Sequence record: MT446415.1
Length of the DNA stretch: 64,000 nucleotides
DNA from: Escherichia virus TH44
Reading direction: 5' to 3' (one strand)
Positions 55,771 through 58,977 of this stretch are shown here, piece by piece (position 1 is the stretch's first letter; each line of letters begins with the position of its first letter). Below the pieces are notes generated by a model that was not told the origin of the DNA, did not search any database, and worked only from the letters and a program-made list of their open reading frames with translations. The position numbers and the translations under genes are program-made.

Positions 55771-56118
55771 ATGACCAAACAACATGGATTAAATATGGAA
55801 TTACCAATTAAAGCAGTAGGTGAATATATTATTTTGGTTTCTGAGCCAAAGCAAGCTGGTGATGAAGAAACTACGGCATCAGGTATTGTTATCGGAAAAC
55901 TCCATCAGGGTGAAATCCCGGAGATGTGCGAAGTATTTTCGGTTGGTCCGGATGTTCCTGAAGGTTTCTGTGAAGTGGGTGATTTGACTCCTCTTCCGGT
56001 TGGCAAGATTGCAAACGTTCCGCATCCTCTGGTTGCTCTGGGACTTAAGCAGGCTAAAGAAGTTAAGCAGAAATTTGTGACCTGTCATTATAAAGCTGTT
56101 CCTTGTCTTTATAAGTAA
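55771..56118 (+). CDS. 31: co-chaperonin gp31 (GroES-like)
   Basis: 115 aa (alternative ATG at 55795); near-colinear with recalled T4 gp31 ([39 protein letters not shown]). Confidence 0.85.
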
Positions 56119-56289
56119 AATTAGCGTTATAAATAATAATATGGATTGGTTGATGTCATACAGAGCTTTGCTGGTGTATGGGGTTAGCCAATCCTAAACG
56201 GTGGACTACAACTGAGAGACTTGCCGAAAGGAAGTGAAATTCAGAAGAACGTGTCCACCAAATATTCACCTCATATTGAGGCTTCTAAA

Positions 56290-56544
56290 ATGTCTTTAAA
56301 CAAACAATTACAACACGCTCTTGAACTGCAACGCACTGCATGGAATAACGGTCACGAAAACTACGGCGCATCTATTGATGTTGAAGCCGAAGCACTGGAA
56401 ATTCTGCAGTATTTCAAACATCTTAACCCGGTTCAAACCGACCTTCGCGCAGTGCTCGAAGCAAAAGATGAACTGAAATTTGCTAAGCCGCTGGCATCTG
56501 CTGCCCGCAAAGCTGTTCGCCATTTTGTCGTAACCCTGAAGTAA
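56290..56544 (+). CDS. hypothetical protein
   Basis: 84 aa from internal ATG (track start TTG). Confidence 0.4.
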   Translation: MSLNKQLQHALELQRTAWNNGHENYGASIDVEAEALEILQYFKHLNPVQTDLRAVLEAKDELKFAKPLASAARKAVRHFVVTLK

Positions 56545-56606
56545 GTTTTAGGTGATTCGCTACCTTAGTGCGGCTAGAAAATCGAGGAGCCACCGAATTA
56601 TCTGAT

Positions 56607-56635
56607 TAATGATTTGCGAATCATTATAGTTTTAG
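56607..56635 (+). terminator. AT-rich hairpin with U-rich tail (possible terminator)
   Basis: TAATGATT-TGCG-AATCATTA then TAGTTTTAG. Confidence 0.35.
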
Positions 56636-56941
56636 ACCCCGATAATTTTGTGGTGTACCTCTTGAATGTTATTCTTATAGCGGCAAGTGCATGCTACCCC
56701 GAGGTGATGGCCAATCGGGAGTACGCCTCAAGGCCTATATATCCATCAGTATATATCTTATCCTCGAGAAATCGAACCCGGAACCTTTAAGCTAACGGTG
56801 TGCAACAGATAAGAGCTATAAGGTATGATGACGAGGTTTATGGTTATCCTGTCGTTAAATATCCGAAACCTAATGTTCCCTTCGAGGGCTTGCGCAGGCA
56901 ATGTCAATAAGTCCTGCATTCTATTTTAAAGAGAATTTAAT

Positions 56942-57103
56942 ATGGCTAAGAAAGAAGTTAAAGTTGTTGATGGCTCCTCCAAACGCGCTGGTTACAAGCG
57001 TGGGTCCAACAAGCGAATCAATCAGGTAACTGATAAACTTCAGGCTCGTGCTCGTGCGGTATTGCGTGCCGATGCAGCTTGCTTTGGTAAGCCGAAAGCA
57101 TAA
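56942..57103 (+). CDS. small basic protein
   Basis: 53 aa, not in track; weak SD; immediately followed by a strong terminator. Confidence 0.35.
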   Translation: MAKKEVKVVDGSSKRAGYKRGSNKRINQVTDKLQARARAVLRADAACFGKPKA

Positions 57104-57108
57104 GTTCA

Positions 57109-57135
57109 GGGACTCTTCGGAGTCCCTTTTTATTT
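57109..57135 (+). terminator. rho-independent terminator
   Basis: GGGACTC-TTCG-GAGTCCC plus TTTTTATTTT. Confidence 0.7.
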
Positions 57136-57139
57136 TCCA

Positions 57140-57215
57140 TAAAGGGGTTTACAACAGGGTTGGTCCAGTGCATAATGATTCCATACTGAGTTACACAATA
57201 AAACACTGGAGAATA
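57140..57215 (+). promoter_or_regulatory. T4-type early promoter cassette
   Basis: AAAGGGGTTTACAACAGGG, CATAAT, GATTCCATACTGAGTTACACAA, SD GGAGAA. Confidence 0.6.
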
Positions 57216-58542: not shown

Positions 58543-58755
58543 ATGTTTAAGAAACTGATTCAGAAAATTTTGGGAACAGAAATGGTTGAAGTTACTTATC
58601 GTGTAACAGACGTGAGCCCATGGGCCCGAAATATTGAACCATATACTAAAACAATTAAAATGCTGAAATCTGACGGTGGATTGTCTATTAAAGACCGTCT
58701 ACCTGGTTATGGTCATTGGGCTGATGTAGAGATTATCAGCGTCAAAGATATTTAA
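58543..58755 (+). CDS. hypothetical protein, tandem duplicate A
   Basis: 70 aa; same length and about 50 percent identical to the next ORF (EMVEVTYRV.D.SP...SIK.RLP..G.W....IISVKD). Confidence 0.45.
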   Translation: MFKKLIQKILGTEMVEVTYRVTDVSPWARNIEPYTKTIKMLKSDGGLSIKDRLPGYGHWADVEIISVKDI

Positions 58756-58764
58756 GGAATCTTC

Positions 58765-58977
58765 ATGATTAAGAAATTATTTAAAAAGCTGTTTGGCTTG
58801 GAAATGGTTGAAGTGACTTATCGTGTTATTGATTTATCACCGCCATATGCTTGCGATGAAGATGCTATTAAAACTGTTGTTATGCGAAAAACATATCGCG
58901 GGCGGTCAATTAAAGAAAGATTGCCAGACCATGGCATGTGGTATGCAACCAAGATTATCAGTGTCAAAGATGTCTGA
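58765..58977 (+). CDS. hypothetical protein, tandem duplicate B
   Basis: 70 aa; paralogue of 58543-58755. Confidence 0.45.
   Translation: MIKKLFKKLFGLEMVEVTYRVIDLSPPYACDEDAIKTVVMRKTYRGRSIKERLPDHGMWYATKIISVKDV

Follow-up and report, generated by a model that had tools for sequence, protein, structure and literature searches.

The spacer between the lysis-inhibition gene rIII and gene 30.9 of the T4-like phage Escherichia virus TH44 (MT446415.1; the window analyzed comprises 64,000 nucleotides) is a tract of about 400 bp (56545-56941, plus strand) which, in our assessment and with moderate confidence, constitutes a non-coding modular RNA island co-transcribed with both flanking genes and carrying as its first module a mimic of ToxI, the RNA antitoxin of the type III system ToxIN. 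The island would be an array of independently folding modules, namely the ToxI-like unit, a branched stem (Domain I), a 149-nt core RNA and a set of 3' elements ahead of 30.9 (Table 1), which relatives gain, lose, swap and reorder. A first-pass annotation of the sequence had offered a small RNA, a regulatory region or a decayed gene as possible explanations. The conserved, covarying structure of the plus-strand RNA gives the first two of these stronger support than had been proposed, and the further stems that had been noticed in the tract are indeed present.

Regarding its coding potential, the tract holds, as initially reported, no open reading frame (ORF) of at least 60 aa, the longest ones reaching 58 aa (TTG start, plus strand) and 53 aa (minus strand). 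No reading frame is open throughout the relatives, in which indels of a single nucleotide are tolerated; variable columns are distributed over the three codon positions as 19/17/22, with no three-base periodicity, and an AUG-initiated ORF located in the pseudoknot module is anywhere between 1 and 34 codons long, depending on the relative. Searches of the tract ORFs against PHROGs and Pfam gave no family match, and the ORFs called over this region in GenBank differ in strand and frame from record to record. Several GenBank records call in the spacer a GH-13 "1,4-alpha-glucan branching enzyme" or hypothetical proteins, which are annotation artefacts. Similarly, in T4T the annotated start of 30.9 lies 42 nt upstream, inside a hairpin loop, in a frame which is not conserved in the window.

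At the RNA level, nearly all bases of the tract fall in covarying structure of the plus strand, and these structures pass covariation controls. The tract matches 995 phage records and is conserved in phages of at least 10 host genera; its alignment with SP18, LZ9, T4, a Klebsiella phage, Edwardsiella phage PEi20 and Enterobacter phage EnC07 reveals independently conserved blocks in an otherwise unalignable spacer, and further sequence diversity for these comparisons was drawn from viral and metagenome contigs. The tRNA and Rfam scans suggested in the first-pass annotation found nothing: ARAGORN reported neither tRNA nor tmRNA in the tract, Rfam 15 gave no match inside it at E values up to 10, whether it was searched whole or in sub-regions, nor in four divergent homologues, and the whole window contained nothing relevant at the Rfam gathering thresholds. 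Several motifs (hammerhead or C/D-box with a UGAUGA motif, GAAA tetraloop with 11-nt receptor, K-turn, T-loop, CRISPR repeat and retron non-coding RNA) were considered and dropped, as none is conserved between lineages. It is through plasmid toxI arrays that the first module was identified instead.

With the whole tract as BLAST query against plasmids and E. coli genomes (n = 5426), only positions 1-43 of the tract were matched, in 60 plasmid records (179 places) and in 40 of the 5426 genomes, every one of these matches being on plasmids. The plasmid matches are tandem arrays of 36-nt units immediately 5' of, and co-oriented with, annotated type III ToxN/AbiQ toxin genes. The phage unit is about 85% identical to the toxI repeats found directly 5' of toxN in plasmids of E. 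coli, Salmonella and Pectobacterium; it shares 31 of 36 positions with the published repeat AGGTGATTTGCTACCTTTAAGTGCAGCTAGAAATTC (PMC8610362), and its closest match is a unit of an IncX4 plasmid, TCTAGGTGATTCGCTACCTTAAGTGCGAGACGAAAATC. Across plasmid and phage copies, paired cells make up 97% of the pseudoknot (slid controls, 17-67%), and compensatory changes occur in three of the six pseudoknot pairs; stem 1 is a pairing predicted from the sequence. A U9-A25 pair has been documented for ToxI, and the pseudo-ToxI of Pectobacterium phage PhiTE carries U9C/A25G instead (PMC3475682), which is the very compensatory pair present in TH44. Moreover, C27 and U28, which are critical for ToxN binding and whose mutation inactivates the PhiTE copy (PMC3475682), are both intact. 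Phage lineages differ in their ToxI-like allele, and these alleles resemble different plasmid toxI variants; the reciprocal search, with a plasmid toxI array, retrieved 249 phage records.

In comparison with the toxIN loci of P. atrosepticum pECA1039 and of the E. coli plasmids pTA141-2 and pU90-1, the phage unit thus keeps the sequence, the pseudoknot stems and an AAAU-type junction at its 3' end. In contrast to genuine loci, in which 1.9-5.6 tandem repeats are followed by a terminator and toxN, it is single and orphan: one complete unit is followed by the degenerate start of a second one, and the gene immediately downstream is 30.9, with no ORF of at least 60 aa in between. Since there is neither an array nor toxN, we classify the module as an orphan pseudo-ToxI and not as a toxI locus. 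Single orphan ToxI-like units were also observed in Salmonella phage 7-11, with the full GAAAUUC junction on the 5' side and a terminator hairpin following, and in Vibrio phage JSF12, where tRNA-like sequences lie on either side and A9/U25 forms a compensatory pair. ToxI-like units hence also occur where a discrete RNA is expected, in unrelated phage families. The junction of ToxI repeats, GAAAUUC, is the cutting site of ToxN, which processes ToxI at AA^AU. In TH44, a GAAAAU junction is present on the 3' side of the unit and the 5' junction is absent. Two exposed motifs elsewhere in the tract, GAAAU (56766-56773, loop of core helix P5) and UAAAU (56855-56861, linker of module A), are similar to this junction.

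The closest known system is the pseudo-ToxI of PhiTE (Blower et al. 2012, PMC3475682). In both phages, an intergenic non-coding copy of the ToxI repeat stands with no adjacent toxN, and in both copies U9C/A25G is present, the U16-18 loop is shortened and an additional A stands at the 3' end. Neutralization of ToxN by RNA mimicry is the action proposed for both. However, PhiTE is rv5-like and its 1.5 repeats are out of phase and mutated at C27 and U28, whereas TH44 is a T4-like member of the Straboviridae whose unit has one complete pseudoknot body with both bases intact, apparently embedded in an mRNA beside other structured modules. The RNA antitoxin ToxI keeps the abortive-infection endoribonuclease ToxN inactive; on infection, the shut-off of host transcription lets the host ToxI decay and sets ToxN free. 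In the mechanism that we propose, the ToxI-like pseudoknot made by the phage would then bind the toxin, which would stay inactive. Such an inactivation has been shown experimentally for the expanded pseudo-ToxI of PhiTE (PMC3475682). As toxIN strongly restricts T-even phages (PMC9391042), the selective pressure exists, and the maintenance of the pseudoknot by compensatory changes, together with the retention of C27 and U28, argues for continued selection. The ToxI-like unit thus most likely neutralizes ToxN-type abortive infection, and we infer that the copy at 56550-56583 in particular would do so.

The core RNA is predicted to be a compact autonomous fold with a closing helix P1, two multi-helix arms and a kissing interaction between loops L2 and L3. 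Its structure was derived from manual inspection and RNAalifold. Over 26 distinct sequences, 96.8% of the cells are paired and changes on both sides occur in 24 of the 49 pairs; none of 500 shuffles was as good, slid controls gave 27-43%, and an independent MAFFT alignment was similar. The kissing loop becomes AAUGA/UCAUU in EcS1 and in Erwinia phage Cronus, which also has a compensatory change in P6, and UAUGG/CCAUA in Serratia phages. Conserved G-U pairs are strand-specific and are compatible with the plus strand alone (the base of P3, for instance, is U-G in 24 of the 26 sequences). The centroid fold of the core sequence taken singly is in agreement with the comparative structure; when the last 266 nt of the tract (56676-56941) are folded as one sequence, the result is uninformative (z = -0.19), so that comparative analysis was needed.

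By BLAST, the core was found in 407 phage records, led by Klebsiella (161) and Escherichia (130), the remaining ones being from Shigella, Enterobacter, Yersinia, Salmonella, Citrobacter, Serratia, Raoultella and Erwinia phages; among the records listed, none annotates an RNA there. With a covariance model (R1), a single copy is detected in each phage, invariably on the plus strand in the rIII-30.9 interval, and the window has no second copy; of 39 rIII loci sampled irrespective of the RNA, 16 contain the core. In six of six comparisons, the interior of the core is more identical to the window than both flanking genes: 96.3% for a Klebsiella phage (rIII, 77.6%; 30.9, 74.0%), 93.3% for PEi20 (69.8% and 74.9%) and 80.3% for Cronus (66.0% and 63.8%), which points to purifying selection on the RNA and not only to recent transfer. 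No E. coli genome matches the core, plasmids give just two partial matches at chance level (E = 0.4), and a motif scan of viral contigs found no member outside T4-like phages. Three matches from an 18-mer scan of bacterial genomes and about 35 from a degenerate 5'-motif scan of viral contigs were chance matches, which the covariance model rejected. Literature searches with gene names, keywords and literal sequence strings found nothing on this RNA, and none of the T4-group taxon names searched for occurs in a catalogue of structured RNAs of viruses published in 2023. That T4 lacks the core is probably why it was missed.

The slot occupied by the core is polymorphic. It exists in three states, with the core (407 records), with an unrelated element, module D (265 records including T2), or empty (T4), and phages whose rIII is 100% identical can be in different states. 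Module D replaces the core in the relatives L043, L045-48, L050, L051, L053 and L063, and its inner hairpin covaries (CAGA/UCUG to CAGC/GCUG). In another relative, L060, a hairpin related to module D occupies the position just before 30.9. That the core is present, absent or replaced in phages which are otherwise nearly identical is what would be expected of a determinant of host range or counter-defence.

Regarding the function of the core, its near-invariant unpaired bases suggest specific recognition of a conserved partner, and its cassette-like polymorphism, together with its adjacency to an antitoxin mimic, makes an accessory or counter-defence role at the RNA level the leading guess and, in our opinion, most likely. 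A bolder and tentative proposal, possible without being probable, is that the entire rIII-30.9 spacer is an RNA-only counter-defence island in which each module (the pseudo-ToxI, the H-type pseudoknot of about 50 nt, module D and the 149-nt core) would serve as decoy for, or inhibitor of, a different host RNA-binding immune effector, the cassettes being exchanged between phages. If this were true, the core would be the founding member of a new class of structured viral RNA, with a target of its own in the host or the phage; alternatively, it could represent a new ribozyme or aptamer class, or self-assemble via its kissing loops.

Several observations weigh against an island headed by a functional ToxI mimic. 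The window holds one complete unit and the degenerate start of a second, against a minimum of 1.9 repeats in genuine toxI loci (PMC3401426); in the 5' tail, UUUU takes the place of AUUC, no AAAU site lies upstream, and loop 2 is shorter by two bases. Wild-type PhiTE, with 1.5 repeats, is unprotected, and a single PhiTE pseudo-ToxI repeat is not antitoxic (PMC3475682). In T4, the copy of the unit has diverged further; plasmid-borne toxIN restricts this phage completely, and it depends on the protein TifA (PMC9391042), the report on TifA making no mention of an RNA mimic in T4. As for the core, it has no bacterial homologue, nothing ties it to any defence system, and its constant position inside what would be an mRNA equally suits a role in cis. 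Finally, the transcription unit itself is deduced from sequence motifs.

A first alternative is a purely cis-acting intercistronic leader and 3' untranslated region, whose structures would make the rIII message more stable, reduce read-through and determine the rate at which 30.9 is translated, possibly with the small basic 30.9 protein binding the tract, the ToxI-like unit being an inert relic of recombination with a toxIN plasmid. For the 3' modules, we do propose such a role: the pseudoknot, the hairpins and the hairpin sequestering the Shine-Dalgarno sequence would form a leader limiting the translation of 30.9. In module A, the linker GUUAAAUA is conserved, the stem covaries across lineages (GAC/GUC to GGC/GCC or GUC/GAC), and the partners of the loop and tail change with the lineage (UGGUU/AACCA, AGGUU/AACCU, AGUAGUU/AACUACU, GUGAG/CUCAC and CAAGGUU/AAUCUUG); as the shuffle test per sequence is underpowered for this module, its support comes from these concerted changes between lineages. 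The B1 hairpin recurs in other genera as GUACCCnnnGGGGCUUG. The hairpin upstream of 30.9 exists in every lineage with a different sequence (GGGAGC/GCUCCC, GAGAGG/CCUCUC or GAACUGG/CCAGUUC), and pairing that sequesters the Shine-Dalgarno sequence is found in other genera as UCC(n)/(n)GGA.

As an account of the whole tract, the cis-acting leader benefits from its invariable location within the rIII-30.9 unit in sense orientation, from the presence of the sequestering hairpin and of the one upstream of it in every phage with 30.9, from the joint absence of 30.9 and of the structured tract in two relatives (L075 and L076), and from the restriction of T4 by toxIN despite its diverged unit. However, between phages with identical rIII and 30.9, the core is replaced by module D or by nothing, indicating that it is not tied to the expression of these two genes. 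The order of the modules relative to 30.9 also varies: module A is 3' of the core in the window and in T4, and precedes it on the 5' side in phages of Klebsiella, Edwardsiella and Serratia, and B1 stands before or after the core depending on the lineage. Hairpins that merely stabilize a message would need neither some 45 invariant unpaired bases nor a kissing loop, and an inert relic fits poorly with the selection argued for the ToxI-like unit. We therefore regard this explanation as unlikely for the tract as a whole.

It is less probable still that the core acts on the rIII-30.9 transcript as a riboswitch aptamer or self-cleaving ribozyme of a new kind. Purine and lysine riboswitches combine a P1 that closes the fold, hairpins held together by an L2-L3 loop-loop contact and highly conserved junction bases. 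The core resembles them in these three features, and a P1 of variable sequence, a mostly GNRA-type tetraloop and a location upstream of a gene are also typical of aptamers and ribozymes. Nevertheless, it has seven helices against three to five, matches neither their sequences nor their models, and takes a variable position relative to the downstream gene. No conserved expression platform adjoins it, the sequences after P1 differing completely and other modules intervening before 30.9; no Rfam riboswitch or ribozyme matches at E values up to 10, and T4 and T2 dispense with the core altogether. As an elaborately structured orphan RNA encoded by a phage, the core is reminiscent of GOLLD, ROOL and the T4 stable RNAs rnaC and rnaD. 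GOLLD and ROOL are reported to form RNA-only multimers (bioRxiv 10.1101/2024.12.08.627333). In contrast to these RNAs, the core has no match to any Rfam family, is much smaller and lies inside a presumed mRNA rather than beside tRNA genes. Homology to rnaC/rnaD (species 1 and species 2 RNAs) was considered and rejected, since R1, run with filters off, gave no significant match over the tRNA/rnaC/rnaD region of T4T, the best E value being 0.88 and located elsewhere. The core is thus, on comparative sequence evidence, a well-supported RNA fold which belongs to no described family, be it in Rfam, tRNAs, rnaC/rnaD or the PeSL cassettes discussed below.

The first-pass annotation had singled out, within what we now define as Domain I, an 8-bp hairpin with a U-rich tail and a GTGTAC-type promoter-like element. 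The hairpin, TAATGATT/AATCATTA (56607-56626) followed by TAGTTTTA, is real, and this AT-rich element is the tip of a larger conserved stem (3' side, 56641-61) and not a free-standing structure. In Domain I, RNAalifold identifies four compensatory pairs among close relatives (columns 52-112, 53-111, 58-106 and 60-104), and the minimum free energy fold (-22.3 kcal/mol, z = -3.48, none of 200 shuffles being as stable) equals the comparative one. As a terminator, the hairpin does not hold: the terminator scan did not call it, only one of its eight pairs is G-C, and a covarying outer helix encloses it, although it may cause weak termination in vivo. Likewise, GTGTAC does occur, at 56653-56658, though as part of the 3' strand of Domain I and not as a promoter; the putative -10 hexamer, TATAGC (56676-81), is the 5' strand of core helix P1, which varies freely in relatives. 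Two resemblances to toxI were also observed in this domain. Its first bases, AAAATCGAGGAGCC, just before the hairpin, look like the start of a second, degenerate toxI repeat, a likeness that we read from the sequence, and the hairpin contains UGAUUUGC, an 8-mer identical to ToxI positions 4-11. Domain I may descend from further toxI repeats.

These revised readings bear on the proposal that the tract is a regulatory or recombination cassette acting as DNA, with a promoter and a terminator like the PeSLs of T4-like phages, which are repeated cassettes of a sigma-70 promoter and a stem-loop. The hairpin with its T-run, the two hexamers with their 17-bp spacer and the cassette-like indels among relatives, as in PeSLs (PMC4122927), speak in its favor, and the tract shares with PeSL cassettes small intergenic modules and module swapping. 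Yet the early promoter consensus (-35 TTTACW, 17-bp spacer, -10 TAYWAT; PMC4122927) is absent, the consensus scan calling neither promoter nor terminator in the tract; the -10 hexamer lacks the invariant final T and its bases covary as an RNA helix, the hexamer spacing is broken in relatives (L053 and T4), and the conserved G-U pairs have a meaning on one strand only. Moreover, the modules are single-copy within the 64-kb window and constrained as RNA with no conserved promoter, whereas PeSLs are dispersed repeats. We reject this reading as very improbable. The least credible alternative, a decayed gene or a gene for a small protein, can call on ORFs of 34-58 aa and on hypothetical proteins annotated in several records, and is rejected in view of discordant strands and frames, frames each broken in some relative, single-nucleotide indels, missing codon periodicity, erratic ORF length and lack of any family match.

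Table 1. Structured elements of the rIII-30.9 spacer of Escherichia virus TH44 and flanking features (positions in the 64,000-nt window).
Feature	Position	Strand	Description
rIII	56290-56544	+	lysis-inhibition accessory protein; PHROG 1457, E = 2.4e-42; same orientation as the tract
Non-coding tract	56545-56941	+	between rIII and 30.9, about 400 bp
Pseudo-ToxI	56550-56583	+	one unit (AGGTGATTCGCTACCTTAGTGCGGCTAGAAAATC) homologous to the 36-nt ToxI antitoxin RNA of type III system ToxIN
ToxI-like pseudoknot stems			G2-G3-U4/A13-C14-C15 and C9-G10-C11/G23-C24-G25
Domain I	56584-56661	+	long irregular branched stem: GAGG/CCUC, GCCAC/GUGGU, GAAUUAUC/GAUAAUUU
Core RNA domain	56674-56822	+	149 nt; seven helices and 5-bp kissing loop
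P1	56674-81 / 56815-22		closing helix
P1a	56682-84 / 56733-35		
P2	56693-702 / 56715-26		bulged A and C
P3	56736-42 / 56749-55		hairpin
L2-L3 kissing loop	56706-10 / 56743-47		GAUGG / CCAUC
P4	56756-62 / 56808-14		encloses P5 and P6
P5	56764-75		tetraloop hairpin
P6	56776-80 / 56796-801		
Module D	slot equivalent to 56670-56825		two-tier hairpin unrelated to the core (ACUAUCACGCGUCAGAAAAAGGUUAUCUGUCUAAGUCGUGGUUGG); in T2 and 264 other records
Module A	56826-56874	+	H-type pseudoknot
Module A stem	56830-36 / 56848-53		GAC(G)AGG / CCUGUC
Module A loop	56842-45 / 56867-70		GGUU / AACC
B1 hairpin	56875-56892	+	GUUCCCUUCGAGGGCUUG, stem CCCU/AGGG; unique in the window
30.9 leader hairpin	56891-56918	+	UGC(GC)AGG.../CCUGCA
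Weak hairpin	56918-22 / 56932-36	+	AUUCU/AGAAU, predicted; would occlude the 30.9 Shine-Dalgarno sequence GAGA
30.9	56942-57103	+	53-aa basic protein; PHROG 1427, E = 8.9e-27
Intrinsic terminator	57108-57127	+	strong; 3' of 30.9

Regarding the genomic context, this phage falls in a group with SP18 (Gaprivervirus), its closest records being those of Escherichia phages TH41 and UPEC01. The genes on the plus strand are in the order cd, 31.2, 31.1, 31 (55771-56118), rIII, tract, 30.9 and terminator, so that the gene directly upstream of the tract is rIII and not, as initially indicated, gene 31. The assignment of rIII is in agreement with synteny, the gene being annotated in SP18, T4T, LZ9, PEi20 and Klebsiella phages. 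The 30.9 protein has no match in Pfam, NCBIfam or PDB sequences. A weak Rfam match to Atu_C8 is merely the terminator after 30.9. The likely transcription unit would extend from a late-promoter motif, TATAAATA (56128-35), to this terminator. The 170-bp spacer between gene 31 and rIII (56119-56290), in which this motif lies, also contains an inverted repeat, GGATTGG (56143-49)/CCAATCC (56188-94), and in the SP18 annotation rIII has a long N-terminal extension spanning that spacer. Downstream of 30.9, the terminator hairpin is followed by TTTACA-17 bp-CATAAT (57148-76), and this layout of stem-loop and early promoter (57108-57176) resembles a PeSL cassette. Further downstream, two adjacent ORFs (58543-58755 and 58765-58977) encode paralogous 70-aa products (MFKKLIQKILGTEMVEVTYRV... 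and MIKKLFKKLFGLEMVEVTYRV...), an apparent tandem duplication.

The covariation support of the core is comparable to that of curated RNA families, and yet it has neither family nor annotation, in the best-studied group of phages. To our knowledge, PhiTE is so far the single phage for which antitoxin RNA mimicry has been proven experimentally, and this took selection in the laboratory. Naturally occurring ToxI-like units whose ToxN-contact bases are intact are carried by hundreds of T4-like phages infecting E. coli, Klebsiella and relatives, and many of these phages are phage therapy candidates. The ToxI mimic provides a concrete and testable mechanism for one module of the island and, as such units occur in hundreds of T4-like phages as well as in unrelated ones, it is suggested that RNA decoys against type III toxin-antitoxin defence may be common.

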